A DNA stretch of 64,000 nt from Endomicrobiia bacterium (GCA_039630545.1 JBCNUU010000006.1:1-64000), one strand, 5' to 3'. Positions 1 to 40,813 are shown, numbered from the stretch's first letter. The notes: generated from the sequence alone by a model not told the origin. Numbers and translations are program-made.

Positions 1-36
1 GTCGCAATCCCCTTAGTTTCGGGTCTCTTTTCTCAC
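1..36 (-). CRISPR. First (leader-proximal) CRISPR repeat; the array presumably continues beyond the left window edge
   Basis: On - strand reads GTGAGAAAAGAGACCCGAAACTAAGGGGATTGCGAC (36 nt). It has a short CCC/GGG stem and ends in ATTGCGAC, a known type III crRNA 8-nt 5' handle. It lies downstream of a Csm operon. Only one copy and no spacer are visible. Confidence 0.8.
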
Positions 37-268: not shown

Positions 269-1384
269 CTATAGATGATCGTCTATTTTATCAATAACAA
301 TAATATTATTTTCGTAATGACAATATGCTCTGTGTCCTAAGTCTGACCAAATGTAAAACTCGTGTGTTGAAGGTGGAATGGGATTACCCTTAATCCTATG
401 AAAATTTAAAGCATTAGGATTCTCATTAAACTTAATATACCGGTATAAATCGTCAATGCGCTCGTTTACTACTACTTTTCTATCTGGAGATAAATTTCTA
501 ACCTGGTTTCTAAAGTTATCAGAAAATCTTATTTGTCTAATCGGTGGATCATAAAGATCTTCTCTATAAATTTCCTTTTTATGATTATTCCATAAAATCT
601 CACCTGATATTGAAATGGTAGCATTTCCTTGCTGGTCAATTTCAAAAAAACTTTCAGGTAAGTTTTGGATTTCGTTTATATTAACTATTTCCTCTCCTAT
701 TATCATCCGCCTGAAAATATTTATGTTATTTTTTATCACATCTTTGCCACTCAGTGAAACGGGAAGTTTTGGAATTCTAAGTAAATTATTGCTTGTTTCA
801 AAAATATAGACAACCTCATCTGCGTAAAACATACCAAGTGTTTGCATTACTCCCTGAACACTTTTAAATCCACCGGTAAGGTTAAAAACTACTTTGTAAT
901 TGTTTGCTCTATATCCTGCAACGGTTTCTAAACAAAATTTAATTAATTCACTTACGCCTCTACGAAAAGAAGTGATGTCTTGCGTATTTAAAAAAGGTAT
1001 TTTTTGAGTAATAACAGTTTGAAATCCGATTTCTCTTAGTAATTCCTCTACTGTTTCTGCTGCTTTACTGCCAAGGTAGGTGTCAGTGTGAATAATTATA
1101 TTGATATCATTGTTTAAATAATCATCATAAAAGTTTCTGTTGTAATAAGATATGATACCATTTAATTCTGCAGATATTTTACTTATATCGTCATATCTTC
1201 TACTTTGTGCTAGATTTAACACTTGATTTTTTCTTTCTTCCATGTGTCTTTTAATTCTTTCCATATTTTGACTATCTATCTCATTTTCTTGCGCATTAGT
1301 ATAGGTATTTATAAGGTTTCTTATTTCTTGAGATGTGTTGTTTGTAAAAATACTTGTTCCAGAAGTCGAAACTATTAGTTTCAT
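269..1384 (-). CDS. cami1: CARF-domain type III effector with C-terminal RelE-like nuclease (Cami1-like, APE2256-type CARF)
   Basis: N-terminal STSGTS and NLTGGFK CARF motifs. The last ~90 aa (IRFSDNFRNQVRNL...HRAYCHY...DKIDDHL) have a RelE-like pattern with a terminal His. Located between csm5 and the array. Confidence 0.75.
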   Translation of the reverse strand: MKLIVSTSGTSIFTNNTSQEIRNLINTYTNAQENEIDSQNMERIKRHMEERKNQVLNLAQSRRYDDISKISAELNGIISYYNRNFYDDYLNNDINIIIHTDTYLGSKAAETVEELLREIGFQTVITQKIPFLNTQDITSFRRGVSELIKFCLETVAGYRANNYKVVFNLTGGFKSVQGVMQTLGMFYADEVVYIFETSNNLLRIPKLPVSLSGKDVIKNNINIFRRMIIGEEIVNINEIQNLPESFFEIDQQGNATISISGEILWNNHKKEIYREDLYDPPIRQIRFSDNFRNQVRNLSPDRKVVVNERIDDLYRYIKFNENPNALNFHRIKGNPIPPSTHEFYIWSDLGHRAYCHYENNIIVIDKIDDHL

Positions 1385-1400
1385 AAAATTATAAAGTTTT

Positions 1401-2531
1401 TTAGTTATTTAAATCTTTTAATCTACACTCTAACCAACCTAAAACATAGTAATTCTGGTTGTCTACAACTATACTGCGAGAAGTAGCAGTTAGTTTTTTA
1501 CCTTGATTTTTTCTACCAAATTTTTTTATAAATTCTTTATACCTGAAATCTTTGTCTTTTTCTAACAACATCGCTATTGTCTTTTGATAAAACCCCCCAC
1601 CTTGACCTAAAGAAAGAAAAAAACAACTATCATCAAGCTTTTTATTTTTAAGGTGTTCGTAAAATTCTATTATACCTTTTAACTTATCTTTTTCTGGGTG
1701 ATTATTAAAATATTCTAACTCTAAATCAATCAAATCTTTTGAAAATTCTAAACAACATTTAATTACGCCTTCTTTGGATAACAATTGTTTCCAAGAACTA
1801 TCTAATAACTTATCACTAAGTTTATCATTTATCAAAATTTCAGAAGTGATTGTTGTATCCTTTTTTAATGTTTCACAGTAAATTTTAAAACCTAATAAAG
1901 CTGATCTTGATTGTTTTTGAGGTTTACTTGCTAACCTTTGAATAACTTCAATCTTCAAAGAATTTGTACTAAGTAAAGAAGAGTCAGATACTAATAAAAC
2001 TCTTAATTTATCGTTATTTGTGCCAAAATCATTATTTTGAAATATAAGTTTGTCTATTATTGTTCTTGCTTTACTCCACAGTTCTTTTTTCAATGTATTC
2101 ATTAGATTCTGGTTATGTTTTAACAGATAATATGCTATCGCTGTCCTTATTGCTCCTTTTATAGAACTCCCAGGGATGTACGGAGTATTTTTAGTTTTAA
2201 TAAATGGTTTTACTATCAACTGATTGAGTTCATCATTTATTTTTGTAGTGTACAAACTTGCTACATTATTGCTAACATCTACACAATAGTCAAAGCTGTG
2301 TTTGTCGGGATTAAAACTTTCTACTAAAAATTCACGAAGTTGTATAATGTTGTTTTCTACTAGAGATGGAAATTTGTTCTGTTCATTTTGGGAGAGTTGT
2401 TGTAGAAAATTTTCCAATTCTATCTTATAAAACTTACCTTGTTTTATTATGTATTCATATGGGTAAATTTCTGTACCATCACCAATATGAACAGGAGATA
2501 AAATTTTACATTCTAATTTATATGTTTTCAT
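1401..2531 (-). CDS. csm5: Type III-A RAMP Csm5
   Basis: LSPVHIGDG, PYIPGSSIKGAIRTA, C-terminal LGQGGG and LGW motifs; position in operon. Confidence 0.92.
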   Translation of the reverse strand: MKTYKLECKILSPVHIGDGTEIYPYEYIIKQGKFYKIELENFLQQLSQNEQNKFPSLVENNIIQLREFLVESFNPDKHSFDYCVDVSNNVASLYTTKINDELNQLIVKPFIKTKNTPYIPGSSIKGAIRTAIAYYLLKHNQNLMNTLKKELWSKARTIIDKLIFQNNDFGTNNDKLRVLLVSDSSLLSTNSLKIEVIQRLASKPQKQSRSALLGFKIYCETLKKDTTITSEILINDKLSDKLLDSSWKQLLSKEGVIKCCLEFSKDLIDLELEYFNNHPEKDKLKGIIEFYEHLKNKKLDDSCFFLSLGQGGGFYQKTIAMLLEKDKDFRYKEFIKKFGRKNQGKKLTATSRSIVVDNQNYYVLGWLECRLKDLNN

Positions 2532-3477
2532 CTAATTTTACTCCTATTGGGAAAGCATAGGCATAGTGTTTAATGTTACTGTTGTCGCATACTTTTTCAA
2601 CAAGGCCACCATAATATTCTTTTACAGGATTGTCAATGAATACAGAACCAGAAGTGAACATCAAAAGTGGTTTTTTGAACGGATTTCTACTACGAGCATA
2701 ATCACCACCTAATTTGCCATATTTTGTAAAAATCTGATAATAACCTTTTTGTGGATCGGTTTTTTTAGGAATAAAACAAGAAAGTGACATAAAAGCATTA
2801 GGGTTTTTGGATAATGGGAGTTTTGTTTCTTCTATAGATATAAATTCCATAGCACCTTTCCCACTTGAAGCGCTTCTTCCAAAACCGCTAAGACATATAT
2901 ATTCAAAAATTGTTTTTAACTTTTCAGGCCTAAATTCAGTTTTTAAAAATATATTAATGTTAGTCGTATAAAATGTTTCTTCACTCGGATGTAAGCCACC
3001 TTCTAAAAGAACTGTGTTCGTCTTTCTGTTTATGGTATTGCGAAAAACAAGTGTAGAGAAAATTTTTGGTTGGGTTTGTTCTTTGTTAAGCAATAATTTT
3101 AACAAAGTAAATTCAGAAAGATTTTCTTTTAAATTTTCAAAATCTGAAATATGGAGATATTTTATTTTTCTTAACTTTTTTATTTTAAGAATACAATCCA
3201 TAAGGGATTTTCTGCTTTTACCAAATAAATCTTCTGCAAGAATAACCACTTTATCATAAGTAATGGGTTTAAGAATAGGTTTCGAAATAAAACCTTCTGG
3301 ATAGCCATCTGAAAGAATTATAGGAGGTTCTTCTTTGTAGGTTTCAAGAAATTCAACAAGTGATGATTCACCATAGAGATATCTTATCGCCCAACAAATA
3401 CAACCAAAAAATGTATCTGCTTGTAAAGGCGTTATTACTGAAGAGTTTATCTTAAATAAAATTTTATATGTTTTCAT
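2518..3477 (-). CDS. csm4: Type III-A RAMP Csm4
   Basis: ADTFFG, LSDGYP, RNTINR, GFGRSASSGKG and GSVF motifs. Confidence 0.92.
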   Translation of the reverse strand: MKTYKILFKINSSVITPLQADTFFGCICWAIRYLYGESSLVEFLETYKEEPPIILSDGYPEGFISKPILKPITYDKVVILAEDLFGKSRKSLMDCILKIKKLRKIKYLHISDFENLKENLSEFTLLKLLLNKEQTQPKIFSTLVFRNTINRKTNTVLLEGGLHPSEETFYTTNINIFLKTEFRPEKLKTIFEYICLSGFGRSASSGKGAMEFISIEETKLPLSKNPNAFMSLSCFIPKKTDPQKGYYQIFTKYGKLGGDYARSRNPFKKPLLMFTSGSVFIDNPVKEYYGGLVEKVCDNSNIKHYAYAFPIGVKLDENI

Positions 3478-3496
3478 TTTTTCGTTTGTAGTGTTC

Positions 3497-4183
3497 TTAT
3501 TCTAAATTTATATCTTTTATTTCATATTCAATTTTTATCTTTCCATATCCTCTACTCCCAGAACCGCCAAGATAGTCCTGCTGTAGCAGTTCTAAACCTA
3601 ATTTTACATTTTCAAATAGTTCCTCATCCCTTTTACCATTATCGTTATTTTCATCAAATACACGGTAAACCATCTCAAACTCAAACTGAGTTCCTGCAGG
3701 AACTCTTTCCATCTGACGGGGGTTGGCTTCAGCAGTTATTCTATTTATAGTATTTTCATACTTTTCTTCTGCATAGGGAAGACCTTTTTCTTCTTTTAAC
3801 TTTTTTAACATTTCTCTTGAAGCATCAGTAAGTTTTGCATCCCTTACAATTAACCTTGTTGGTCCTGTGTCTGTTTCCTGTCCTGCAGAAGTACCAAAGA
3901 TGCAACATATTGGACAATTTTTATCTTTACATGGATTTTTTCTATTGCTTCCGTGAACTTCACCGTTAGGTTCAACTTTTTCTAACTTCCATTCAAGAAG
4001 TGTTCTCATTTTACCTTTAATTGATGAACCTGGAATATATGGAAAATCATCAACAGGACTTCTAATAATAGGATTGTCAACACCTCCTATTTCTATCTTT
4101 TCGCTTGAACCACCAATATGAAGGCCAGTAAGGCAAGTTATAATTCCTGAAATTTTTTTGTATTTTAATAGTTTCATTTTCAC
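3497..4183 (-). CDS. csm3: Type III-A backbone RNase Csm3
   Basis: TGLHIGG, IGGVDNP (catalytic Asp present), PYIPGSSIKGKMR, YLGGSGSRGYG. Confidence 0.96.
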   Translation of the reverse strand: MKMKLLKYKKISGIITCLTGLHIGGSSEKIEIGGVDNPIIRSPVDDFPYIPGSSIKGKMRTLLEWKLEKVEPNGEVHGSNRKNPCKDKNCPICCIFGTSAGQETDTGPTRLIVRDAKLTDASREMLKKLKEEKGLPYAEEKYENTINRITAEANPRQMERVPAGTQFEFEMVYRVFDENNDNGKRDEELFENVKLGLELLQQDYLGGSGSRGYGKIKIEYEIKDINLE

Positions 4184-4593
4184 TTACCTCCTTCACCATA
4201 AAAATAACCTACAACTGCTTCAAATACTAAACAAAAAGCTATAAAATCTTTCTCTGTTTTTATATTATCAACCATCTCTTCTATGAACTCACGAAATTCA
4301 ATTGGAACTTTACGTTCCCTGCCTTTTGTTGGACAAGCGTATGCTGCCTTTGATTTTAACATTTTAATTAACGGTTTTGCTTGTTCAAAATTGTTTTTTA
4401 CCTTTAGTTCTAATGCTTTAACATCATGGTAAAACCTTCTTAGCTGCGCCGAAGTTAAAGGAGGATTCTTAGGACCTTGTTGTGGCCTTTGTGGACTAAT
4501 AAACTTTTTTGCCCATTCTAATGCTTTTTTTGTTAAAAGGTCTTCTTTAATGATGTTATTTTCAACATTTTCATAAAAATAATTCTCTGTCAT
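4180..4593 (-). CDS. csm2: Type III-A small subunit Csm2
   Basis: TSAQLRRFY and FEAVVGY motifs; 137 aa between cas10 and csm3. Confidence 0.93.
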   Translation of the reverse strand: MTENYFYENVENNIIKEDLLTKKALEWAKKFISPQRPQQGPKNPPLTSAQLRRFYHDVKALELKVKNNFEQAKPLIKMLKSKAAYACPTKGRERKVPIEFREFIEEMVDNIKTEKDFIAFCLVFEAVVGYFYGEGGK

Positions 4594-4606
4594 AACATAA
4601 ACCTCC

Positions 4607-7156
4607 TTATTTTCTTCCTCTGTTCTTATATAGTACCCAAAACAGAGGAATTTTAAGATTTTTCATTAGTATTTCTTCTTGTGGGTCTAAACTTATCTTG
4701 TAAAGTTTTTGAAGCTCATTTATAAGTTCTTCATTTACAATTTTTGTCTGTCCATTTTCTTTTTTTATCTGAATAATATTTCTTTTGACATCGTATGCCA
4801 TTAGAGAGTGGTAAAGAAGATTTCTAATGTCATATTTATCTTTTTTCGTATTGAGATACATATTATGATATTTTAATAATCTGTATAAAAATGCTGAATT
4901 TATTTTTGAACCTTCTCTGTTAAATTCTTTATCTATCTTTTCAGCAAAGCTAAATAATGCGTCTAAATTTATCCATTCAACAGTGGTGTCAAACAAAGTT
5001 ATCCTGTTTCTGCCATTATCCTTAGACATTTTTAGTGATTCTTCAGCTAGATGTATGGCTCTACTAATTGGGAAATTGGGTTTTATTAAAGTAATACCAG
5101 CAGAAAGAGAAATATCTTTGTTTTCACAAGTAAATTTTTTGAAATCAAAATATAGCTTTTTAGAAAATTCTATAATTGTTCTCCAATCACTTATTAGTAA
5201 TAAATCATCACCACCCGAATACACGGTATAGATATTTTGAAATTCGTTATGGCAGAGTTCTTCTACATAGCCGGCAAAGAAAAGATTCAACATTCTGCTT
5301 AAAGTAACATAACGAGATATAGAAATACTTCCACCTAATCCCAAACTAAAAATAAGTCCTAACCTGTCAACATCTGCCTTAAGAATTCCTATCAATTGAG
5401 AGCCAATTTTTTTACTGTCTTTCTGCTCAACGGATTTGGCAGCTATACAATAAAAAGTTTTTACTTTACCTGTCTCTTTGTTTACTTCACAATTTTTTTC
5501 ACTACATAAAGAACAAAGCTTTTCTTCAACATTTTCATCTGTAAAAACTGGAACATAATTTGCTATAAATCTCAACCCATAATTGGATAGCAAAACTTTG
5601 GGATCATATAACTCTTCAATAAGATAAAAATTTCTGTAATTAACTTTATTTTTATCTTCAAAAAAATAAATATAGTGTTTACCATCAAAAAAGGATATTT
5701 TTTCTTCAAAGTCAAGTCTACTGGTAGAATAACATAGAATTTTTTTCTTTATTAACCACTCACCAATTTTTTCTTGTTCATTACATTGACTGCAAATTTT
5801 ATTACCATCATTATTTTCAGCAGGCATTTTACCACAACTTTCACATATTCCTTCTGGATAATTAATATCTTGTACAAACTTTTCTTCACGCCATTCGTTG
5901 TTTTCATAAAGAAATTCAAAAAGTTGTTGTTTTTTCTTTTCTTCAATATTTTCGTTAAGTTTTTCTAAAAAAGAAGAAAATTTTTCTATTTTGAAATCAT
6001 CCCTTGAAAGTTCTAAACTCCAATCCAGATTTAATAGTAATTCTCCTTTAAATGTTTTATAGTACCATTCATTAATTTCACTATATATTTTGTTAAGTCT
6101 TCTCTTTATTTCATCTAAATTTGGCAAAAGTGTAATAAATCTTCCACCTGCATTAATTATATTACAAACTAATGGGAGATCTAATTGGTTAAGAATGAAA
6201 TGACTTGTAATATTAGTTAAAATACTTAAATAGAAAGATCTCGCTCTTAACCTTTTACTAATACCTTTCACACCACTATGTGAAAAATTAAAAATATACC
6301 TTTGAATACCACTTAAATCTCCACCTAACAATATAAACTTCTTATCGTTATTCCTAATACTATCCTCTGTAAGAGAATTCTTATTTTTATGAAACTCATA
6401 TAAACAAACAGCGATTGCAGCTGTTGTTTTTAAGTGGTCAAAAAGAGATATGTCAGGAAAATCAATAGTTGAGCTTGGAATACACCAGGTATATTTTTCT
6501 AAAAGAAATATTAGCGAGTTAAGAAATATATTAAAGTCATCTTTAGGAAGGTTTCGAAATTCACTAATAAAGTTTTGCCATAGTTGATTATATTTATTAA
6601 CTAAACTTTTTCCTTCAGGAGGATCTAATTTGCTTATATCCTGAGGAAATACATTATCTTTAATAGGCAATAACGGTCTTATATCATATCTATAAGCATC
6701 AGCAACAGAACCATTACTTTCTAAATTAATTTTTTCAAAGATAGAATGTAATCTTACTTTTTTGTATCTTTCAGATCCTCTAATTTCATCTATTATGTCA
6801 TTTTCTAATCTATCCATACCAGCAGAAATTTTATCAGCAATTTCTATAATGGTTTTTAGAGGAGTGTCTGGTTTGTGATGATATGATGCTAAATTTGCAC
6901 AATTATCTGTTATAATTGATAAAGAAATATTTTTGGGGAAATAATCTTTATTTTTCTCAAAAAATTCGTTTGTCCATATGACATGATGATGAGAATACCC
7001 ATCTTTGCTGTTTTTGTCAGTTGGACAAATAGAAGTTTTCATTCCTATTGATAAAGAAGAGAGTTCACTTTCATTTTCAAATGCACGTTGATAAAACTTA
7101 CCAATATCGTGTAATAATGCAGCTAAAATTATATTGTCTCGTTCATATGAGTTCAT
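4607..7156 (-). CDS. cas10: Cas10/Csm1 with intact HD nuclease and Palm (GGDD) cyclase motifs
   Basis: LLHDIGK, IADKISAG, SLFDHLKTTAA, GDLSGIQ, LRARS, KADVDRLG, VYSGGDD. Confidence 0.97.
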   Translation of the reverse strand: MNSYERDNIILAALLHDIGKFYQRAFENESELSSLSIGMKTSICPTDKNSKDGYSHHHVIWTNEFFEKNKDYFPKNISLSIITDNCANLASYHHKPDTPLKTIIEIADKISAGMDRLENDIIDEIRGSERYKKVRLHSIFEKINLESNGSVADAYRYDIRPLLPIKDNVFPQDISKLDPPEGKSLVNKYNQLWQNFISEFRNLPKDDFNIFLNSLIFLLEKYTWCIPSSTIDFPDISLFDHLKTTAAIAVCLYEFHKNKNSLTEDSIRNNDKKFILLGGDLSGIQRYIFNFSHSGVKGISKRLRARSFYLSILTNITSHFILNQLDLPLVCNIINAGGRFITLLPNLDEIKRRLNKIYSEINEWYYKTFKGELLLNLDWSLELSRDDFKIEKFSSFLEKLNENIEEKKKQQLFEFLYENNEWREEKFVQDINYPEGICESCGKMPAENNDGNKICSQCNEQEKIGEWLIKKKILCYSTSRLDFEEKISFFDGKHYIYFFEDKNKVNYRNFYLIEELYDPKVLLSNYGLRFIANYVPVFTDENVEEKLCSLCSEKNCEVNKETGKVKTFYCIAAKSVEQKDSKKIGSQLIGILKADVDRLGLIFSLGLGGSISISRYVTLSRMLNLFFAGYVEELCHNEFQNIYTVYSGGDDLLLISDWRTIIEFSKKLYFDFKKFTCENKDISLSAGITLIKPNFPISRAIHLAEESLKMSKDNGRNRITLFDTTVEWINLDALFSFAEKIDKEFNREGSKINSAFLYRLLKYHNMYLNTKKDKYDIRNLLYHSLMAYDVKRNIIQIKKENGQTKIVNEELINELQKLYKISLDPQEEILMKNLKIPLFWVLYKNRGRK

Positions 7157-8112
7157 AACACTATCTCATACCTCCCTAAGCCGAAGGTGCAGTTTTTGCC
7201 TATGTGGGTATACTGACCAAGGATTAAAAATGGTAGAAAATCTTCAAGAGATTCTTCAGTTTGATAGGTTATTTTTCCTATAAAGCCACTTAGTTCCATT
7301 ACTATTTTTCTTCTCTTAGAGTAACGAAACCATTTGCTCCAAGTGAGGTTATTATTTTTTATTTTAACATTTTTTGCTTTTTTTGTCAACATTTTGTAGT
7401 CAAATTTTATTTCTTGATCACAATAAAAATACAGGATCGCTAAAAGTCTGCGATATACTGCGCGAAAAAGTGATATAAACTGTGGTTCTTTTAAAATTAA
7501 ACCTTGTTCTTTAATTCTTGTCGGAGAAAGAAAATTTAGTGTTATTTCGTTTCTGTATGTCTTTGTGTCAAATTTGTCTAAAAGTTGTTTAAGAGTTACG
7601 TGACTGTTTAAGTTTCTTAATATCCGGTCCTGACTATAAACTACTTCGTCAAAAAAGTTTTTGACTTCAGTAAGTTGAAATTTTGTTCTGTTGTTTTTTG
7701 TTCCTATGCCCTTTTTTGAAAGGTTTTCAAAGGTTAAGATAAAGTAGGGTATGTACTGTGTTGCTTTACCAAAAAGTATAAGATTAAATTCAAACTCTTC
7801 CTGTGGTTGATAAAGATTTTTTGTATGGTCTACTTCTAACACAAAAGGTCTTGGAAGGTCTTTTGTTGCTCCAAAGTTCGGAAGAATTTCTTTAGGGTAG
7901 CTCTCAAATAAGTATACATATACACAGTTTGGTTTTACTATGCATTCGTCGCATTCTTTTGTTTTTTTGTTGATGCAGCAGGTTTCTTTTAAAACACTTC
8001 CAATTGCTCCTCGCAAAATGTTGCCAGGGTATGTAAGTAGCTTAAGCTGGTCTTCAAATTTAATGGTAAATCTATATAATGAGAAATAAAAATTTATATC
8101 TTCATTTATCAT
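7153..8112 (-). CDS. cas6: Cas6 pre-crRNA endoribonuclease
   Basis: LRGAIG, Cys-rich insert, PRPFVL, FLSPTRI, C-terminal G-loop HIGKNCTFGLG. Confidence 0.92.
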   Translation of the reverse strand: MINEDINFYFSLYRFTIKFEDQLKLLTYPGNILRGAIGSVLKETCCINKKTKECDECIVKPNCVYVYLFESYPKEILPNFGATKDLPRPFVLEVDHTKNLYQPQEEFEFNLILFGKATQYIPYFILTFENLSKKGIGTKNNRTKFQLTEVKNFFDEVVYSQDRILRNLNSHVTLKQLLDKFDTKTYRNEITLNFLSPTRIKEQGLILKEPQFISLFRAVYRRLLAILYFYCDQEIKFDYKMLTKKAKNVKIKNNNLTWSKWFRYSKRRKIVMELSGFIGKITYQTEESLEDFLPFLILGQYTHIGKNCTFGLGRYEIVL

Positions 8113-8168
8113 ACATATATTTGAAAACTTTAATATAAATTTTTCTTGTTGACAATCAATGTTTGTTG

Positions 8169-9365
8169 TTAAAATTTAAGTTTTTTTATGTTTTCCAAAA
8201 GTAAATCAACTGAGTCGGTCTTTTCCCAGGTGAAGTCTTCATCTGTTCTGCCGAAGTGGCCATATGAGGCTGTCTTTTTATATATTGGTCTTCTTAGTTT
8301 TAGTTTGTCTATTATTTCTTTAACTTTAAAAGAAAATGTGTATTTTATTAGTTTAAGAAGCTTTTCGTCATCTATTATCCCAGTGTTAAATGTATCAACT
8401 GCAATTGATACCGGATCTTCTTTTGCTATACAATAGGCAATCTGTATAAGACATTTTTTTGCAATACCTGCTTTAACTATGTTTTTTGCTACATAACGTG
8501 CCATGTACGCAGCTGAACGGTCTACTTTTGTGGGATCTTTTCCTGAAAATGCTCCTCCTCCATGAGGGACATAACCACCATAGGTGTCCACCATTATTTT
8601 TCTTCCTGTAAGGCCTGTGTCTGCTTGAGGACCTCCTATGGTAAACTTTCCAGAGTTGTTGATGTAAATTTGTGTTTTTGATGTAAAGAAATCTGAGATT
8701 ACAGGTATAACTATTTTTCTTATTATTTCGTCTTTTGCTTCTTCAGACATGGTATCGGTTTTTTTGTCAACTACTTCTTCGGTATGCTGTGCAGCAATAA
8801 TTACAGAGGAAACATAAAGAGGTTTGCCATTTTCATATTTTACTGTAACCTGGGCTTTCCCATCAGGGCCAAGATATGGAAGAATCTTGTTTTTTCTTGC
8901 TTCAGAAAGTGTTTTTGTAAGTTTATGAGCTAAAGTTATTGGCAGAGGCATAAGTTCTTCTGTTTCTGATGTTGCATATCCAAACATTATACCCTGGTCA
9001 CCAGCACCAATTTTGTCTTGTCCAGATACTGCTTTGTTTATCTCTTCGGATTGTCTGTTAAAGAGTGGTATTATTGTTATATCTTTGTAGTCCCAGCTAT
9101 AGAGTTCTTTAGAGGTGTATCCTATTTGTTTTATTACATTTCTTACTGTGTCTTCTATTTCATAAAAATAAATACTAGCTTCTGACAGGATCTCTCCAGC
9201 TAAAATAATTTTGTCTCCTGTTGCTATTGTTTCACAAGCAACATGTGCATGAGGGTCTAGAGTCAAATATCTGTCTAAAATAGCGTCTGAAATTTGGTCA
9301 CAAATTTTGTCGGGGTGTCCTTCAGTAACTGACTCTGCTGTGAATTCTGTAAGTTTTTGGTTCAT
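8169..9365 (-). CDS. metK: S-adenosylmethionine synthetase
   Basis: ESVTEGHPDKICDQISD, GAGDQG, GGGAFSGKDPTKVDRS, YGHFGR. Confidence 0.98.
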   Translation of the reverse strand: MNQKLTEFTAESVTEGHPDKICDQISDAILDRYLTLDPHAHVACETIATGDKIILAGEILSEASIYFYEIEDTVRNVIKQIGYTSKELYSWDYKDITIIPLFNRQSEEINKAVSGQDKIGAGDQGIMFGYATSETEELMPLPITLAHKLTKTLSEARKNKILPYLGPDGKAQVTVKYENGKPLYVSSVIIAAQHTEEVVDKKTDTMSEEAKDEIIRKIVIPVISDFFTSKTQIYINNSGKFTIGGPQADTGLTGRKIMVDTYGGYVPHGGGAFSGKDPTKVDRSAAYMARYVAKNIVKAGIAKKCLIQIAYCIAKEDPVSIAVDTFNTGIIDDEKLLKLIKYTFSFKVKEIIDKLKLRRPIYKKTASYGHFGRTDEDFTWEKTDSVDLLLENIKKLKF

Positions 9366-9384
9366 AAAATTACCTCCTTTTTGT

Positions 9385-10830
9385 TTAAATTTTCGGTAAA
9401 ATATGTACCTTTCTGCAGAACTTTTTTAAATCTGTCAAAGATGCTTCTTTTTTTGTATGTGAAGTTATCACAGCTTCCAAAACTATCTTTTTTTCTTTGA
9501 TTTTAGATATCAACGAATTATCTGGTGTTAAAAATATTCCATCTGTAAAAATTAAGGCTTTTTTGATTTTTTTTGTTTCTAAAATATGTTTTAGCACACA
9601 TTCTATTTCTGTACCAAATGTGCTGTATGATATTCCTTTAAAGAATTCAGAATTCTTGACTTCTTTAACTTTTGTGCTCCATACGTACACTCTAATTAAA
9701 CCTCTACATACAAAAGGTTTAAAAGAAGAATAAAGAACCTCGTAGTAGTCTTCCATACTGCCACTTACATCAACATAGATATTACATATAGCATCTGGTC
9801 GATCAAAAGCAGGTCTATTATAGTGTGTGTCATAAAAAACCACATCTAAATTACTTTCTTGTTTTACTATGTAGTTGGGGATGTTAAGGTCAGGTATTAT
9901 ACTTTTTGTATTTAATTCTGTTTTTTTGAGGGTATAGATTGGCATATAAGTTTTTTCTTCCTGCAGGAGTCTTAATATCAGTTTTCTTGTAAAGTTTACA
10001 ACTTCTGTTTCCGGTGGTTTAAATTTAATTTTGAAAGTATCTAAATTCTCAAAAGCATTTCCACAGCTATCTCCGTGGAACTTTTTTCTTTCAGAGTTTC
10101 CTGAAGAATCCGAAGAAATGTTGTCTAAAAGTTTTTCTAATTTTGAAATTATGTCTTTGTTTGTTGTTGAACCTAAATTTTTATTACTTATGGGATGTGT
10201 TCCAATCAAAGGTAAATCAACAAGCAGGGTTTTATATGAGTCTAACTTAAAAATTTCTTCTATTATTTGTAGTATTTCTCTAAAGGAAACTCCTTCTTTA
10301 GATGCGTATAGTTTTTTAATTAACCATTTATATTTTAAGGGAAAATCTTCTTTTAGTTTTATGTTGTTTTCTTCATATCCTTGAGGGGGTCTGAGTAGAC
10401 TTTCTATTATATTGCTGACGCTATAGAGTCTTTTTAATATTGAGTATTCAGATGGATCCTTAAATTTTTTCACAAGTAGAGAATTAATCAAAGCATCAAA
10501 TGCGATATTCATTGCTTGTTCAAAGTCGTATTCATCTTTTAGTTGTGGTTGTTCTTTTTTTGCTATCTCAAGATGGCCTAAAAATATATGGTAAAGTTCA
10601 TGGTATAAAACAAATTTTAAGTCTTTTTGTGTCTCGCAATATTTTTCTACAAATTCTTTGTTTATAAGCAAATATATTTTTTCATCTTCCAGACTGACAG
10701 ATAATGAATGAATTTCTTGAGTAATTTTTACCTCAACAATTGTTAAAAACTCATCTATTAAGTTGGGATCGTCTGTTATTGAATTAATTATTTGTACTTT
10801 TAGTTTTTCTTTTTCTTCGGGAAGTTTCAT
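9385..10830 (-). CDS. Metallopeptidase-like (HExxH) plus vWA domain protein (DUF2201-like), MoxR partner
   Basis: HELYH followed by NIAFDALIN; Ser-rich linker; C-terminal MIDAS motif DVSGSM...GT...FTDG. Confidence 0.85.
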   Translation of the reverse strand: MKLPEEKEKLKVQIINSITDDPNLIDEFLTIVEVKITQEIHSLSVSLEDEKIYLLINKEFVEKYCETQKDLKFVLYHELYHIFLGHLEIAKKEQPQLKDEYDFEQAMNIAFDALINSLLVKKFKDPSEYSILKRLYSVSNIIESLLRPPQGYEENNIKLKEDFPLKYKWLIKKLYASKEGVSFREILQIIEEIFKLDSYKTLLVDLPLIGTHPISNKNLGSTTNKDIISKLEKLLDNISSDSSGNSERKKFHGDSCGNAFENLDTFKIKFKPPETEVVNFTRKLILRLLQEEKTYMPIYTLKKTELNTKSIIPDLNIPNYIVKQESNLDVVFYDTHYNRPAFDRPDAICNIYVDVSGSMEDYYEVLYSSFKPFVCRGLIRVYVWSTKVKEVKNSEFFKGISYSTFGTEIECVLKHILETKKIKKALIFTDGIFLTPDNSLISKIKEKKIVLEAVITSHTKKEASLTDLKKFCRKVHILPKI

Positions 10831-10867
10831 GTTTATTTCTCCTATTTAGAGAAGTTTATGTTTCTTT

Positions 10868-11371
10868 CTATATAATTGAATCTTCAAAACTATAAAATTC
10901 TCTTCTAATAAGTTCAGGTATAAAGGATATTTCCCTGTGAGGCAAAAATGCATATCTGGTAGATCTTAGTATCACATTAAGAGAAACTAAAATTGGTGCT
11001 TTCAGAATTTGTTTTGATTCAATTTTATTTTTTAAAAACATGGTTAAATCTATAAGTGGAATAATTCTATTGCAGTTTTTGTTAATGTCATCTAATGCCG
11101 GTTTTAATTCTTTTTCTAATATCTCAATGTTTGCTTGGTCGTTTCTGTATAGTTTGATCAGTTCACACCATACTTGTTTTGAAATATTAGTATGCTTTTC
11201 TAAATAATAAATATCGTAAAAATTAAGTTCATCTAAAGAAAATTTTAATATCTTATTTTTGGAAAATTTAGTAAAACTGTTTGCAGTTAGAACTCTTACA
11301 GCTGTGGTATCTAAATTTTTTAGTATTATATTTCCTTTCATTTTAATTCCCCTCCTTGAATATATTTTCAA
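10868..11371 (-). CDS. Hypothetical protein between the AAA+ and vWA genes (start may be the second Met at 11341)
   Basis: 167-aa ORF coupled to the AAA+ stop codon; AGGAGGG SD precedes MKGNII; no recognised motif. Confidence 0.65.
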   Translation of the reverse strand: MKIYSRRGIKMKGNIILKNLDTTAVRVLTANSFTKFSKNKILKFSLDELNFYDIYYLEKHTNISKQVWCELIKLYRNDQANIEILEKELKPALDDINKNCNRIIPLIDLTMFLKNKIESKQILKAPILVSLNVILRSTRYAFLPHREISFIPELIRREFYSFEDSII

Positions 11372-12905
11372 ATCTTTCGTTAAAGTATAAAAATGTTTTA
11401 ATGTATGAATTTATGAATTTTTCAAAATTTATTTGTTCTTTAAGATTGATTTCACAAAAATAATTAAAAATACTACAGTATATTGCATCTGAAATAGATT
11501 TATTTTTAACCTGCATGGTCTTGATTTCTTCATCTATCATTTCAAGTATATCCTGAGTGTAACTGAAACTAAGATTCTCTTCATTTGAAGATAAACTTTT
11601 AAAAGTTGGGATCATTTTATAGAAATAAGTATCTGTATCGTGATTATTTTTTATCCTTAATGTTAAATCAGAGGTATATTTTAAGAATTCATAACATAAA
11701 ATATCTGCCAGTTCTGCACTTAAAGGCATTCTTGATAGGTATCTAAAACCAGTAACTACAAAACAAACTTTTCTATATTCGTTGTTTTTGTTTATCAAAG
11801 AGATTAGTAATTCTTCAAATTTTTCTTTTTCTATATTGTTTTTAAGTAGTAGCTCTATAGCTAAAAAAATTTTCTCATAGGGATCTTTTTCATAATAAAC
11901 TAATATTTTAGGATCGTATTTATCTATACATCTTTTTATTGTGTTTGAAATAATTATGTTTAGTAATGAATCGTCAATTTTTAAGTATGCTCGGTGAGGT
12001 AGAGAACAAATAGTTGCGTTAAATGTTATCCAGTAAAGTTCTATCTCTTTGCCTGTAGCTAAAACTGCTGAAATATACCATAAAATATTGTCTTTTATAA
12101 CTTTTATTCTTCGGGTTGAGAGGTAAATATTTATTTTCTTTAATTCGTCACTCAAAGAAACCAGATACTTGTCAAATCTATAAAAGTATTCTTTTACAAT
12201 ATCGTTAAATAATAATTTAGTTTTATGAATTGTATTTTTTAACCAGTTTGTTAACTTGTTGTCTATTTTGTAAATATTTAGACTACTTATTATCTTATAT
12301 TTTATTTTCTCTTCCATTTCATGAAAGTTTGGAAATTTTAGTATATAGTTAAATCTATCTGCTAAGGCAACATCTAAAGGATAGGTACCCTCGGTAACTA
12401 AAGTTTCAGGTGTCTCATCGTCATATTCAAATTTAGGTGGATTCATTGCTGCCCACCTATAGATAAGTTTGTCTAAGTTTATTCCATATATTCGTTTTTC
12501 ATATATAATTGAAAAAAACTTATTTTGAGTATCTGGTTTGCACCTGGAAATTTCATCAATAAATATCGCTTCTTTATCCCAGCATGAACAAGGTAGTTGC
12601 TGATAACTGATTTTACCATTGGGTAGTTTAACAGGATAGCCAATAAGTTCATCTAAATTTAACATTGAAGCATTGTAATGAGCATAATTTAAAGATAAGG
12701 TTTCAAAAAGTTTAAGTGTTAGTTGCGTTTTTGCAGTTCCTGGAGTACCTATCAGTAACACAGGGCATTCCTGTGCCAGAGATGCTATAATAATGTCATC
12801 AAAGTCCTTAAGTCCATAAAGATTTAATTCTTCCGTGATAGATATGGGATTTTTTTTAATAAAGAAAGTGCTTGAGGAGTTATTTAGAATCTGTTTTTTT
12901 GTCAT
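11343..12905 (-). CDS. MoxR-family AAA+ ATPase with C-terminal helical extension
   Basis: Walker A GTPGTAKT, Walker B IFIDEISR, AAMNP, PLDVALADRF; adjacent vWA gene. Confidence 0.88.
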   Translation of the reverse strand: MTKKQILNNSSSTFFIKKNPISITEELNLYGLKDFDDIIIASLAQECPVLLIGTPGTAKTQLTLKLFETLSLNYAHYNASMLNLDELIGYPVKLPNGKISYQQLPCSCWDKEAIFIDEISRCKPDTQNKFFSIIYEKRIYGINLDKLIYRWAAMNPPKFEYDDETPETLVTEGTYPLDVALADRFNYILKFPNFHEMEEKIKYKIISSLNIYKIDNKLTNWLKNTIHKTKLLFNDIVKEYFYRFDKYLVSLSDELKKINIYLSTRRIKVIKDNILWYISAVLATGKEIELYWITFNATICSLPHRAYLKIDDSLLNIIISNTIKRCIDKYDPKILVYYEKDPYEKIFLAIELLLKNNIEKEKFEELLISLINKNNEYRKVCFVVTGFRYLSRMPLSAELADILCYEFLKYTSDLTLRIKNNHDTDTYFYKMIPTFKSLSSNEENLSFSYTQDILEMIDEEIKTMQVKNKSISDAIYCSIFNYFCEINLKEQINFEKFINSYIKTFLYFNERFENIFKEGN

Positions 12906-13069
12906 AGGTTTATGAATTCTCCTTTCTAACTTAGATGGAGATCGGCAGTACCACCTTACCTACTTTTTATAAGGTAGGCAGGTTGGTAAGGAAGATATGC
13001 GCCTGCCGGTCATCGCGCTGAAGCAACAATTCATGTTGCTTCACATCTTCCTTTTCGGCATAAACCTAC
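12903..13069 (-). ncRNA. Candidate SAM-I-clan riboswitch variant (proximal, translational)
   Basis: P1 UAGGUUUAUG/CAUAAACCUA; branched P2; P3 CCAACCUG..UAAGGUGG; 6-bp pseudoknot CGGCAG/CUGCCG; P4 UCUCC/GGAGA contains the SD; metK in the downstream operon. Confidence 0.65.
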
Positions 13070-13171
13070 TGAGTTTTAAAGATTTTTCAAAGATGTAAAA
13101 TAATTATGAATATAAAGAAAACAATCTAAGAATTTAAGTTTATGTATTTATCAACTTTATTTACAACTTTA

Positions 13172-13356
13172 AAGATACATGGGGTTCCTTTTTGAGGAAC
13201 CGCTTTTCCACCTTATTCTACGAATAAAATTCGTAGAACAGGTTGGCACGGAGTCGGTAGCAGGCTTTTCCTGCCGGGGCTGGTTAACACCCCCTTCCTC
13301 CGACTCTTCATGTATCCTACAATTGGCCTTCTGTGAGTATGGCCAAAAATAGGATA
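13172..13356 (-). ncRNA. Candidate SAM-I-clan riboswitch variant (distal) with a 5' competing hairpin
   Basis: P1 AGGAUACAUG/CAUGUAUCUU followed by AAGAG; P2 GAGUCGG/CCGACUC enclosing two hairpins; P3 CCAACCUG..UAAGGUGG; P4 GGUUCC/GGAACC; no clear pseudoknot. Confidence 0.55.
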
Positions 13357-13369
13357 GTTTATTTTTAAT

Positions 13370-13398
13370 AAAGTATAAAAATTTTTAAAAAAAGTCAA
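13370..13398 (-). promoter_or_regulatory. sigma70-like promoter for the riboswitch/AAA+ operon
   Basis: TTGACT (13393-13398) with TATACT at 15-nt spacing or TACTTT at 17-nt spacing, just upstream of the structured RNA. Confidence 0.5.
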
Positions 13399-13449: not shown

Positions 13450-14655
13450 TTATATATGCTTCAATAAGTGACCTAAACGGTACTTTTTAGAAGAAAGATA
13501 CTTTTTCATGTGTTTTGTTTTGGGCGGGATTTCTATTGGTATGCGTTCTATGATTTTTATTCCGTAACCTTCAAGTCCAACTATTTTTTTAGGATTGTTA
13601 GTAAGAAGGCGAATTTTTTTTACACCTAAATCTGCTAAAATCTGAGCACCAATCCCATAGTCTCTAAGATCAGGTTTGAATCCTAGTTTTAGATTAGCTT
13701 CAACTGTGTCCAGGCCTTTGTCCTGAAGCTGGTATGCTTTAAGTTTGTTTATTAAACCAATACCTCTACCTTCTTGGTGTAAGTAAAGTAGAATTCCACC
13801 TTCCTTCGAAATCATCTCTAAGGACTTATCCAACTGAAGTCCACAATCGCATCTTAAAGAATGTAACGCATCTCCTGTAAGGCAAGAAGAATGCACTCTA
13901 ACCAGAATGCCGTCTTCTATTTTTCCTTTTTGCAGAACAATGTGATTTTCTTTAGTCAAAACATCTTGATAAACGAAAAGTTTAAATGTACCATAGTCTG
14001 TTGGTAAAATTGTACTTACAATTTTCTTTATAAATTTCTCTGTAAGTCTTCTGTATTTTATTAGGTCAGCAATTGTTATAATTTTTAGTTTGTGTCTTTT
14101 GGCAAATTTTATTAACTCTGGAAGTCGTGCCATTGTGCCATCTTCGTTCATTATTTCACATATTACTCCGGCTGGGTAAAAACCAGCAAGTTTTGCTAAG
14201 TCAACAGAGGCCTCTGTGTGACCTGCTCTAACTAGTACTCCTCCCTCCTTGTAAACCAAAGGAAAAACATGTCCAGGACGAACAAAATCTTCCGGTTTTG
14301 CAAGAGGGTCTATGAGTTTTTTTATGGTAGTGGCACGATCATATGCAGAAATACCTGTTGTTATTCCTTCTTTGGCATCTACAGATACAGTAAAGGCAGC
14401 TTCATGTGGAATCTCTGGCTGACATACCATCAGTGGAATTTTAAGTTTAGTCAGTCTTTCTTCCGTTAAAGCTACACAAATAAGACCTCTTGCATATTTT
14501 GCCATGAAATTTATCCAGTAAGGAGTTGCTTTTTCTGCTGGTAGTACAATATCGCCTTCGTTTTCTCTTTCAGGGTCATCTACTACTATTACTGGTTTGC
14601 CTTTTTTTAGTTCTTTTATTGCAGCTGGAATTGTAGCAAAAATTTTATTTTTCAT
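13450..14655 (-). CDS. ribBA: Bifunctional DHBP synthase / GTP cyclohydrolase II
   Basis: [27 protein letters not shown]...RCDCG, QEGRGIG. Confidence 0.97.
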
Positions 14656-15273
14656 TCATTTAATAAAACCATGTTCTTTCAAAAAATCCAGTGTGATTTC
14701 TTTTTTTGGTTTTGTTATTTCTTTTATGTATCTTGCTAAAATATCTACTTCTATGTTGAATTTATCTTTTGGTTTTTTGTATTTAAGTGTTGTATTATTT
14801 AGTGTAAACGGTACTATCACTACAGAAAATCTGTCTTTTAATTTTTTTGCAACAGTTAAACTTATACCGTCCAGTGCAACAGAACCTTTTTCTACTATAA
14901 AATCATATAAATTTTTTGGCAACTCAAATATGTATTCTTCGTGCTTGATCTCTAATAGCTCTACTATACCGTCTACATGACCAGTTACAAAGTGGCCAGA
15001 AACTCTACTGCCAACTTTAAGCGAGCGCTCAAGGTTAATTTTATCTTGTGGTTTTAAAAATTTTAAGTTTGTTCGGCTTAGCGTTTCTAAGGATAGTGTT
15101 GTTTTAAAAATTGTTTTGTTATCTGAAGTTTTTAGATCTTCTACTGTTAAGCACACACCATTCACAGAAACACTATCTGCAATCTTTATGTCAGACAACA
15201 CCGTAGAGATAACAAGAGCAGTTGGTGTTTTTTCTTTTAGCTCTGCTATATCTTCTATTATACCCGTAAACAT
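14656..15273 (-). CDS. ribE: Riboflavin synthase (alpha chain)
   Basis: MFTGIIE N-terminus, NGVCLTV, GHFVTGHVD, DGISLTV. Confidence 0.97.
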   Translation of the reverse strand: MFTGIIEDIAELKEKTPTALVISTVLSDIKIADSVSVNGVCLTVEDLKTSDNKTIFKTTLSLETLSRTNLKFLKPQDKINLERSLKVGSRVSGHFVTGHVDGIVELLEIKHEEYIFELPKNLYDFIVEKGSVALDGISLTVAKKLKDRFSVVIVPFTLNNTTLKYKKPKDKFNIEVDILARYIKEITKPKKEITLDFLKEHGFIK

Positions 15274-15290
15274 TTTTTTAAGGTTAAATT

Positions 15291-16394
15291 TTATTTTATA
15301 AATTTTGCTTTTATTACAAAATCTTTAGCTATTTCTTCAATACTTAAAAACTCTACTTTAAACGCTTTTGACGGCAAAACAACTCCTTCACCTTCCACCC
15401 AGGTTTTCGCTGTTCTGCCTCCAAAAATTTTTGGTGCCATAAATATAATAAAATCATCTACTAACTTTTCTTTTAACAGTCTCCAAATCGTCTCACCACC
15501 ACCTTCAACTAACACTGAAGTGATGTTGTGGTTTTTAGCTAAGGTTTTAAGAATTTGTTTAAATGGTATTTTTTTAGTCCGATAAAAATAAAAGATTATA
15601 TTTTCTTTATTATAAAAGTTTTTGATTTTTTTGTTTTCAAAATTAGGAGTAAATATTATGGTTTTAATCTTGTTGTCAAAAATGTGAAATTTTTTGTTTA
15701 AGTTTAATAATTTTGATATGTTTCCTACCACTATTCTTGTTGGATTTTTTCCAAAATTATGAGATGATAATGAAGGGTTGTCTATAAGCACTGTGTTTAT
15801 TCCGACCATTATACCATCATATGTGGCTCTTAGTTTATATACATATTCCCTTGAGTTTTCTGTAGTTATCCATTTTGATTTGTTTGCTACTGTTGCAATT
15901 TTCCCATCAAAGGTAATTGCTGATTTAATTGTTACATACGGTAAAGATTCTGTTATCCATTTTAGATAAAATCTGTTTAGATATTTTGCTTCTTCGTTTA
16001 GTACACCAACTTTACATTCTATTCCTTGTGAAATGAGTTGTTTTATTCCCTTGCCATTAACCTCAGGATTAGGGTCTATTATTGAACAGACTACTTTTTT
16101 TATTTTGTATTTAATTATTTTTTCAGTACATGGTGGGGTCTTCCCCCAATGACAGCAAGGTTCTAAGTTTACATATAAAGTGGATCCAGCTATTAAAGAT
16201 GTATTCCCTTTTTTTATTGCGTCTTCTATAGCTTCTACTTCAGCATGCGGCTTACCATAAGCTTTGTGATAACCCTCTCCTATTATTTTGTTTTTATGTA
16301 CCAAAACAGCACCAACTAAAGGATTAGGAGAAGTCTGTCCTAAAGCTTTTTTTGCAAGTTCAAAACAGTATCTTATATATTTTTCATCATTCAT
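15291..16394 (-). CDS. ribD: Riboflavin biosynthesis deaminase/reductase
   Basis: PNPLVGA, HAE, LEPCCH..KTPPC, VEGGG. Confidence 0.97.
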   Translation of the reverse strand: MNDEKYIRYCFELAKKALGQTSPNPLVGAVLVHKNKIIGEGYHKAYGKPHAEVEAIEDAIKKGNTSLIAGSTLYVNLEPCCHWGKTPPCTEKIIKYKIKKVVCSIIDPNPEVNGKGIKQLISQGIECKVGVLNEEAKYLNRFYLKWITESLPYVTIKSAITFDGKIATVANKSKWITTENSREYVYKLRATYDGIMVGINTVLIDNPSLSSHNFGKNPTRIVVGNISKLLNLNKKFHIFDNKIKTIIFTPNFENKKIKNFYNKENIIFYFYRTKKIPFKQILKTLAKNHNITSVLVEGGGETIWRLLKEKLVDDFIIFMAPKIFGGRTAKTWVEGEGVVLPSKAFKVEFLSIEEIAKDFVIKAKFIK

Positions 16395-40652: not shown

Positions 40653-40728
40653 CGGGCTCGACGGGATTTGAACCCGCGATCTCTGGCTTGACAGGCCAGC
40701 GTGTTGAACCAGGCTACACCACGAGCCC
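40653..40728 (-). tRNA. tRNA-Asp(GTC)
   Basis: Cloverleaf; anticodon arm CTGGC-CTGTCAA-GCCAG; no encoded CCA. Confidence 0.96.
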
Positions 40729-40741
40729 ACCACCCAAAATA

Positions 40742-40813
40742 TGGGCGGTAGAGGATTTGAACCTCTGACCTTCCGGGTGTAAACCGGGCGCTCTCCCGCT
40801 GAGCTAACCGCCC
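40742..40813 (-). tRNA. tRNA-Val(TAC)
   Basis: Cloverleaf; anticodon loop TTTACAC; T-loop TTCAAAT. Confidence 0.94.

Follow-up and report, generated by a model that had tools for sequence, protein, structure and literature searches.

A widespread AAA+/vWA/MetK operon with SAM-riboswitch-type leaders adjoins a type III-A CRISPR-Cas locus in an Endomicrobiia genome

We describe a four-gene module that encodes a MoxR-like AAA+ ATPase, a small protein, a protein combining an HExxH motif with a vWA domain, and an S-adenosylmethionine (SAM) synthetase (MetK2), and that is preceded by two leaders folding like aptamers of the SAM-I riboswitch clan. The module lies directly upstream of a type III-A CRISPR-Cas operon in a 64,000-nt stretch of DNA from an Endomicrobiia bacterium (the window, in whose positions all window coordinates are given). 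The window belongs to a metagenome-assembled genome of 1.6 Mb and 95% completeness (G000), which we compared with a sister species (G006), a congener (G001) and more distant relatives. The sequencing runs listed for it were 3 DNA runs from a single hot-spring study. Our best reading, which we consider on balance probable, is that the module is an operon that responds to low SAM, includes a MoxR/vWA machine acting on a single client, and stands beside a cas operon that has its own promoter. The module and the cas genes occupy the minus strand, and their features are as follows:

13372..13398, minus strand: promoter-like site TTGACT-15 nt-TATACT (TTGACT at 13398-13393), read by eye
13164..13325, minus strand: leader 1, distal SAM-clan-type aptamer (fold and Rfam match)
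12902..13072, minus strand: leader 2, proximal SAM-I-type aptamer (fold and Rfam match)
11343..12905, minus strand: MoxR-like AAA+ ATPase, 520 amino acids (aa) (Pfam AAA_5)
10868..11371, minus strand: small open reading frame (ORF), 167 aa from a TTG start (ORF call)
9385..10830, minus strand: HExxH (zincin-like) + vWA/MIDAS protein, 481 aa (motifs and structure model)
8169..9365, minus strand: metK2, canonical-type SAM synthetase, 398 aa (TIGR01034)
8113..8168, minus strand: metK-cas6 spacer with promoter-like hexamers and the palindrome TTGATTGTCAA
269..8112, minus strand: type III-A CRISPR-Cas operon (Pfam, NCBIfam, PADLOC)
1..36, strand not assigned: first CRISPR repeat, at the contig end (repeat recurrence)

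A preliminary description of this DNA had given the same minus-strand order, from a promoter-like site through two structured leaders, the AAA+ gene, the small ORF, the HExxH-vWA gene and metK into the type III-A genes, and our annotation agreed with it at every step. The gaps between genes, counted from the CARF-RelE gene at the end of the cas operon up to the AAA+ gene, are 16, -14, 19, -4, 13, -4, 56, 19, 37 and -29 nt, and no minus-strand site resembling a terminator turned up between metK and cas6 in a scan of the window, as that description had also stated when it put all gene gaps at 56 bp or less. The four module genes are thus co-oriented, in the expected order and separated by short gaps or overlaps. 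Upstream, ribD-ribE-ribBA end at 13450, and a 544-nt leader then precedes the AAA+ gene. The promoter-like site at 13398 was not listed by our consensus scan, which requires a spacer of 16-18 nt where this site has 15; over the whole scan, 21 such sites were observed against 26.8 in shuffles, so promoter-like hexamers are weak evidence in this AT-rich DNA. We take a 61-aa ORF that overlaps leader 1 (13213-13398), with no family match in Pfam or NCBIfam, to be spurious.

Both leaders folded into a four-way junction when minimum free energy (MFE) structures were calculated model-free. In each fold, P1 encloses a branched P2, P3 and a P4 hairpin, and P3 is built on CCAACCUG...UAAGGUGG. None of 200 shuffles was as stable as leader 1 (MFE -72.2 kcal/mol, z -6.6), and none of 200 was as stable as leader 2 (-65.7 kcal/mol, z -7.5). 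In short-range Rfam searches, the best matches on the correct strand were SAM-clan models, aligned over the full model length. Leader 1 matched SAM-I/IV (RF01725) with 23.9 bits at 13318-13147 (model 1-99; gathering score 41.1), with inserts of 42 nt in P2 and 17 nt in P3, and leader 2 matched SAM-I (RF00162) with 27.9 bits at 13066-12907 (model 1-108; gathering score 44.4), with E 1.4e-4 in a 196-nt search and a 53-nt insert in P2. The suggestion that the leaders are SAM riboswitch-type elements was therefore upheld by folds of the SAM-clan type and by full-length, sub-threshold matches, and both show the P1-P4 junction with the conserved core that is typical of the SAM-I clan. At gathering thresholds, Rfam matched only six tRNAs in the window.

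In the fold of leader 2, P4 pairs UCUCC with GGAGA, the ribosome-binding site of the AAA+ gene, and the 3' strand of P1 (CAUAAACCUA) extends into the AUG of the same gene. The modeled layout is that of a translational OFF switch. The aptamers lie ~90 nt apart with no ORF between them. The congener G001 has a single SAM-I-type aptamer in its leader (RF00162, 32.9 bits, E 7.7e-6, z -4.5), for which an independent MFE fold gave the same junction, P4 holding the ribosome-binding site and P1 the AUG. From these sequences we infer that the two diverged aptamers of the window bind SAM and that they follow an OFF logic.

We then followed the module in other genomes by scanning metagenomes with the vWA alignment, and analyzed the best 80 of 442 confirmed relatives. 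A MetK-like gene lay directly 3' of the vWA gene in 49 of the 64 listed loci with at least 700 nt of downstream sequence, and its product was 25-33% identical to MetK2. Upstream of the vWA gene, all 39 listed loci with at least 2.2 kb of sequence carried an AAA+ gene (27-38% identical). The preliminary description had proposed a search of other genomes for conserved AAA+/vWA/metK/cas10 synteny; of this, the AAA+/vWA/MetK-family part recurs widely. Closer to the window, G006 has the AAA+, small ORF, vWA, metK and cas6 genes in the same order at 70-89% protein identity, the module order alone being kept at 77-89%. G001 has the AAA+, small ORF, vWA and MetK-like genes at only 34-39% identity, set among genes for a GH57 glycosidase, an ACT protein and a penicillin-binding protein; because the housekeeping MetK proteins of G000 and G001 are 82% identical, the G001 module belongs to a different lineage. 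Within the genus, 3 of 8 genomes have the vWA protein; elsewhere among 61 relatives, it was not found as part of a module. Judged by this distribution of sequences, the module is an accessory block.

Of the 31 loci scanned, 13 (9/17 and 4/14) have SAM riboswitches at curated thresholds on the operon strand ahead of the AAA+ gene. These were SAM-I/IV riboswitches in L021, L024, L057, L062, L075 (two), L077 (two), L079, L080, L097 and L098, SAM-II riboswitches in L036 and L040, and a SAM-I riboswitch in L081. By locus type, a riboswitch was present in 11 of 23 scanned loci of the MetK type and in one of the five loci shown without MetK (L081). Because three riboswitch classes precede the operon, there is strong evidence that it belongs to the SAM regulon. 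Tandem aptamers recur as well: the two in L077 lie 225 nt apart with no convincing ORF between them, and those of L075 stand in front of and behind a DUF3293 gene (4182-4619). We also observed a DUF3293 gene between the riboswitch and the AAA+ gene of L079 (1013-1582). The gene-less tandem of the window could be a remnant left after loss of a DUF3293-type gene between the aptamers.

A scan of viral contigs returned 19 loci, four of them with full-length AAA+/vWA pairs and none with a MetK-like gene, giving no sign at the sequence level that the MetK-type module is phage-borne. The AAA+/HExxH-vWA pairs that we saw there without a MetK-like gene are on viral contigs of 112-333 kb (L116-L118 and L134). 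Triads that lack MetK had heterogeneous, mostly ordinary neighbours. The operon is undescribed in print as far as a full-text search of main articles shows, in line with the earlier statement that this architecture was not known to have been described.

The fourth gene of the window is a canonical metK. Its product scored 512.9 bits against TIGR01034, well above the equivalog cut-off of 309.4, and carries the N, M and C domains of S-AdoMet synthetase in Pfam. The preliminary description had asked whether the genome holds a second, housekeeping metK, and it does: G000 has two metK genes. The other one, which scores better (584 bits), has a housekeeping setting on contig C45, with a sugar nucleotidyltransferase gene on one side and ahcY and lysS on the other. 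MetK2 is 60% identical to that copy. A single canonical MetK match was found in 35 of 40 other Endomicrobiia genomes; the exceptions were G006 and G019 with two, G001 with one and a divergent module copy, and G021 with none. We placed these proteins in a quick maximum-likelihood tree (IQ-TREE), leaving out two MetK fragments of G001 and the truncated L020 and L060 sequences. MetK2 and its G006 orthologue fell in the canonical clade, apart from the 17 Endomicrobiia housekeeping MetKs, which form one clade (support 96). A recent in-genus duplication as the source of metK2 was rejected, since MetK2 lies outside that 17-member clade and is only 59-61% identical to its members. Across 21 canonical sequences, MetK2 among them, 99 columns are invariant, and MetK2 has the shared residue at each.

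Other loci carry a different kind of MetK in the fourth slot. In the tree, 43 module-type MetK-like proteins formed one long-branched clade (support 100), to which neither MetK2 nor its G006 counterpart belongs. These proteins keep GHPDK, E45, D123, Q124, D168, K170, D249, K256, K276, D277, K280 and D282. Four other positions differ: R replaces E58 in 42 of the 43 and G replaces Q105 in 34, and all 43 have K for R255 and D for G122. E58 and Q105 presumably match the E. coli residues that hold the methionine substrate, and the module-type enzyme may, to judge by its sequence, use an altered substrate. A canonical metK adjoins the module in L079 and L089 as well. Canonical and divergent MetK are thus exchangeable in the slot, which argues that the business of the operon is SAM synthesis. 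In the G001 module (L015), we also observed that the MetK-like gene is split into ORFs 11352-11936 and 11981-12394 in different frames, by either a frameshift (decay) or an assembly error, and that the tblastn match of the G001 vWA gene spans one TAA.

We next turned to the three other module proteins. The AAA+ protein (11343-12905) matched Pfam AAA_5 with 42 bits (cut-off 22) and AAA_3 with 25.9 bits, below the cut-off of 27, and its Walker A (GTPGTAKT) and Walker B (IFIDEISR) motifs complete the picture of a MoxR-type AAA+ protein. It had no bpMoxR match in Pfam; the AAA+ proteins of some relatives passed the bpMoxR cut-off of 27 bits (L029, 35.5; L089, 35.2; L076, 30.8). For the small ORF, an ATG at 11341, ten codons in and behind GGAGGGG, would give a protein of 157 aa. 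We consider this start more likely than the TTG; the Atlas entry of the protein begins at residue 11. No Pfam, NCBIfam or PADLOC match and no usable Atlas match was obtained for the small ORF, and its homologues were found only in G006 (82%) and G001 (38%). A gene of 96-260 aa lies between the AAA+ and vWA genes in 31 loci. The hhalign probability between the small ORF and these middle genes was 18.8%, and hmmsearch matched only G006, with 14 bits.

The 481-aa protein has no Pfam match of its own. It carries the motifs HELYHIFLGH and DVSGS, and its H77, E78, H81, D354, S356, S358, T407 and D430 were invariant in an alignment of 8 relatives and then in one of 32. An AlphaFold2 model (pLDDT 80.6) gave residues 290-481 a vWA fold, whose best Foldseek match was NorD in the NorQD complex (9qhe_G, E 1.5e-5), followed by the MIDAS domain of Rea1/MDN1. 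VIA-align matched the protein to vWA domains with Z 11.8 over 135 residues (root-mean-square deviation 3.0), in agreement with a vWA/MIDAS assignment. Both structure searches were dominated by the vWA domain and not by the N-terminal residues 1-289. Relatives of the protein reached Pfam DUF2201_N (PF13203; 24.9 and 26.0 bits, cut-off 23.2) and also VWA_CoxE. The profile of the vWA family collected 609 representative clusters at E<=1e-30 and 5336 at E<=1e-3.

The genome of the window also holds a paralogous triad on contig C3 (L016: 7569-11960, minus strand), made up of a 521-aa MoxR-like AAA+ protein, a 384-aa protein and a 536-aa HExxH-vWA protein that are 23-36% identical to the window proteins. 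It has no MetK and is followed directly by an SbcD-like phosphoesterase gene and a gene for an 871-aa AAA_23/SMC-like ATPase. The same triad is present in G006 (L018), and a similar nuclease/SMC pair lies 3' of the MetK-like gene in the metagenome loci L065 and L078.

The cas genes next to the module form a complete locus, with these members:

7153-8112, minus strand: cas6 (Pfam)
4607-7156, minus strand: cas10 (TIGR02578, 665 bits; HD, Csm1_B and palm2 in Pfam)
4180-4593, minus strand: csm2 (Pfam)
3497-4183, minus strand: csm3 (RAMP)
2518-3477, minus strand: csm4 (RAMP)
1401-2531, minus strand: csm5 (RAMP)
269-1384, minus strand: CARF-RelE gene (PADLOC, 377.5 bits; Cas_APE2256 in Pfam)

Cas10 keeps HD at residues 16-17 and GGDD at 648. 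The window's initial 24 nt were found again 57 times on six short contigs of this assembly (C22, C35, C37, C41, C43 and C47), where the copies mostly stand ~73 nt from one another. Because the window starts with a repeat that recurs on short contigs, we regard the type III-A locus (Cas10/Csm1, Csm2-5, Cas6 and a repeat array) as complete and the assembly as broken at the array.

The preliminary description had cautioned that the metK-cas6 gap has promoter-like hexamers of its own, and this caveat was borne out: the 56-nt gap contains two hexamer pairs, which are conserved in G006. A 96-nt stretch that includes the spacer is 89% identical between G000 and G006, TTGATTGTCAA and TATATT included, and this conservation suggests, at the sequence level, a separate promoter or operator for the cas genes. 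The palindrome TTGATTGTCAA (8132-8159) overlaps the promoter-like hexamers and is near-identical in G006, where a central G is A; it may be an operator for the cas operon. No homologue of the window's cas genes was found in the 80 listed metagenome loci, and in G001 the 19 kb examined hold the module but no cas genes. Only the sister species G006 shares the metK-cas6 junction. A conserved linkage of the module with cas genes, as earlier envisaged, was therefore not found. The accompanying proposal that a fall in SAM de-represses metK, the MoxR/vWA genes and possibly the cas genes fared differently in its two parts: aptamers here and curated riboswitches in relatives favour it for the four module genes, whereas the unconserved linkage and the promoter-like spacer speak against it for the cas genes. 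The proximal aptamer, being translational-looking and lacking an intrinsic terminator, need not control downstream transcription. On this sequence evidence, the adjacency of module and cas operon seems to be a neighbourhood within a variable or defence region and not a shared SAM regulon.

A further point raised earlier was that some Cas10 proteins use SAM to make SAM-AMP. The effector encoded in the window is CARF-RelE, of a family described as cyclic tetra-adenylate (cA4)-activated Cami1 in the available part of PMC11229360, and gives no reason to invoke SAM-AMP. In the available parts of PMC10600005 and PMC11229360, SAM-AMP signalling is tied to CorA with NrN or SAM-AMP lyase effectors. The terms 'MetK' and 'riboswitch' are absent from the main text of the former, and 'MetK', 'vWA' and 'MoxR' from the main text of the latter.

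On the other side of the module, the DNA that follows ribBA differs, and is ordinary, in all four congeners examined: glycosyltransferase/L21/S1 genes in one, porin/MoaA in another, epimerase/RecR/O-antigen ligases in a third and TPR/PorV-like genes in the fourth. Because its content differs in each of them, we take the region after ribBA to be a rearrangement point in the genus. The rib operon itself (13450-16394) consists of ribD-ribE-ribBA, with no ribH after it. Six tRNA genes form a cluster on the minus strand at 40653-41199.

We then asked how often defence genes flank the module. PADLOC was run on 100 of 114 flank ORFs, after 14 had been dropped (contig-edge module fragments, the near-duplicate L078, canonical metK and an antisense ORF), and on 63 control ORFs from the window and from other loci of the genus. 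Matches at E<=1e-8 were obtained for 18 of the 100 flank ORFs (in 14 of 37 loci) against 6 of the 63 controls (Fisher p 0.10), and matches at E<=1e-30 for 10 of 100 against 2 of 63 (Fisher p 0.09). The comparison is underpowered, and an enrichment of defence genes beside MetK-type loci is suggestive, not established. Among the MetK-type flanks were BrxC (L098), HEC-05/GmrSD (L080), AbiEii (L074) and a C5 methylase with a type IV restriction enzyme (L029); others had Hhe with a type IV enzyme (L089), a Mokosh-like helicase (L097), a WYL protein (L051) or an IetA-like protein (L041). An SbcCD/LmuB-like pair lies beside L065, and a type IIG methylase-restriction enzyme beside L081. In many cases the flanking genes are ordinary. 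The module proteins themselves (AAA+, small ORF, vWA protein and MetK2) had no match in PADLOC-DB 2.0 at E<=0.01.

In L098, a full-length BrxC/PglY gene (9160-12843, 1426 bits) starts ~160 nt after the MetK-like gene of a module controlled by SAM-I/IV, so that a SAM-dependent BREX system lies right behind the operon. In L040, a SAM-II-controlled module is followed after ~1.5 kb by a gene for an RtcR-like CARF-sigma54 activator (7831-9396, 246 bits). Apart from the window's own, we saw no other CARF-domain gene beside the operon.

If our best reading is right, positions 8169-13330 of the window would make up one operon of a widespread family under SAM-riboswitch control. Bound SAM would block translation of the AAA+ gene by holding its ribosome-binding site in P4 and its start codon at the end of P1, and the genes downstream, which overlap or lie close together, would be carried along by coupling or polarity. 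As SAM falls, the operon would be made, and its canonical-type MetK would add SAM-synthetase capacity. The AAA+/vWA pair would remodel one client, most plausibly the MetK-family enzyme or a partner bound to it, by analogy with NorQ-NorD and with CbbQ-CbbO, which we take to be a client-specific MoxR AAA+/vWA pair comparable to that of the window. What the sequences show is the anatomy, the second metK, the conserved synteny and, in relatives, the association with riboswitches; this client is inferred, as is any part played in phage conflict, and a defence function of the module is suggestive but unproven. Several observations weigh against the reading of a low-SAM response operon beside an independent cas operon. 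Neither leader reaches its Rfam gathering score, genome-wide scans of G000 with RF00162 and RF01725 gave no match, and the consensus AAGAG reads AAAAG in leader 2. No expression platform could be recognised in leader 1, and our scan found no minus-strand terminator there. In addition, 18 of the 31 scanned related loci have no curated riboswitch, and the 56-nt gap has no terminator, which leaves room for read-through into cas6.

Such read-through is the core of the proposal in the preliminary description that a single SAM-controlled transcript runs from ~13398 through metK into the cas genes, so that SAM depletion would also induce CRISPR immunity. All genes are co-oriented across the 56-nt gap, which holds no minus-strand terminator-like site, and the metK-cas6 junction is kept in G006. 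We nevertheless consider this regulon improbable: none of the 80 listed loci has cas homologues and the G001 module stands without them, the spacer keeps the hexamers TTGATT/TTGTCA and TATATT and the palindrome at 89% identity, which fits a promoter or operator of its own, and the proximal aptamer hides the Shine-Dalgarno sequence and AUG and forms no terminator, so it need not gate downstream transcription. It is similarly improbable, in our estimate, that the module is an autonomous abortive-infection or stress system in which a MetK-family effector consumes ATP or makes an adenosylated signal, with the MoxR/vWA-zincin pair as its switch, an arrangement like that of MoxR-vWA conflict systems. 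The module-type MetK clade does keep the ATP/triphosphate-site residues while altering positions presumed to contact methionine, and the AAA+ proteins of some relatives reach the bpMoxR threshold. Set against this, the fourth gene of the window is a canonical MetK with all 99 invariant columns, which argues that the slot needs ordinary SAM synthesis; a canonical metK also stands beside the module in L079 and L089, and riboswitch-controlled genes usually serve the metabolism of their own ligand.

Somewhat less remote, though still unlikely, is a role in counter-counter-defence. Here, phage SAM lyases or MetK inhibitors would lower SAM, and the riboswitches would turn on a spare synthetase and, with it, a MoxR/vWA-zincin machine able to release or shield MetK or else to destroy the inhibitor made by the phage, thereby keeping SAM-dependent immunity working. 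T3 SAMase reportedly cleaves SAM, inhibits its synthesis and overcomes BREX (available part of bioRxiv 10.1101/2023.02.27.530186), an action that would fit this role, as would the defence genes in several MetK-type flanks, the type III-A system of the window, and the patchy and xenologous distribution of the module. However, the flank enrichment is not established (p 0.10 and 0.09) and many flanks are ordinary, the G001 copy lies among metabolic and cell-wall genes, the module matches no PADLOC model, and a type III-A system with a cyclic oligoadenylate (cOA) effector does not need SAM. We give a comparably low chance to the idea that the riboswitch serves as an infection sensor, where a drop in SAM caused by phage SAM lyases or MetK inhibitors would open the tandem aptamers and call up an inhibitor-resistant SAM supply and a MoxR/vWA-zincin machine to rescue MetK or clear the inhibitor away, and read-through would boost the adjacent CRISPR system in this lineage.

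SAM riboswitches are among the best-mapped regulons, and here three of their classes control an operon in which no role has been assigned to the first three proteins. A MoxR/vWA pair acting on SAM synthetase would, if true, be a new client for this class of chaperone, and the pairing with MetK would point to a hidden vulnerability or regulation of that enzyme. The restriction-modification, BREX, Abi and CRISPR neighbours make a defence of the SAM pool against phage SAM lyases testable, and the infection-sensor reading, if true, would amount to a metabolite-depletion-triggered immunity layer across many phyla. To this the window adds a canonical-MetK variant of the operon, a gene-less tandem of two diverged aptamers, and a lineage-specific juxtaposition with type III-A. 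The variant indicates that a canonical MetK can replace the divergent MetK-like enzyme, which argues, as far as sequence can tell, for an operon about SAM synthesis itself.

Similar to SAM-I and SAM-I/IV riboswitches (RF00162 and RF01725, clan CL00012), the window leaders have a P1-P4 junction with conserved AUGAAGAG, GCCAACCUG and UAAGGUGG, precede a metK-containing operon, and place the Shine-Dalgarno sequence inside the aptamer fold as in translational OFF switches. Unlike these families, they score below gathering, carry branched P2 inserts of 42-53 nt and form a gene-less tandem, and the first controlled gene encodes an AAA+ ATPase instead of an enzyme of the SAM pathway. The protein pair resembles NorQ-NorD (PDB 9qhe, 9qh8) in that a MoxR-type AAA+ gene stands beside genes for a MIDAS vWA protein and one possible client enzyme. 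It differs from NorQ-NorD in the N-terminal HExxH domain of the vWA protein, the small third protein interposed, the MetK-family putative client and the riboswitch control. MoxR-vWA-centred ternary conflict systems were reportedly described by Kaur, Burroughs, Iyer and Aravind in 2020. The module is like these systems (bpMoxR, PF20030) in combining MoxR, vWA and a third partner, in its patchy distribution and in its frequent defence-gene neighbours. It is unlike them in lacking a beta-propeller, STAND or other described third component, in being controlled by SAM riboswitches and in ending with MetK. SAM-AMP-producing type III systems likewise link SAM to type III CRISPR (available part of PMC10600005), from which the window differs in its effector, CARF-RelE. 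The cas locus of the window is, by comparison with the account of Mogila et al. (2023) as relayed in the available part of PMC11229360, an ordinary and complete type III-A locus with a Cami1-type CARF-RelE, and its only oddity is the SAM-switched operon 56 nt upstream.

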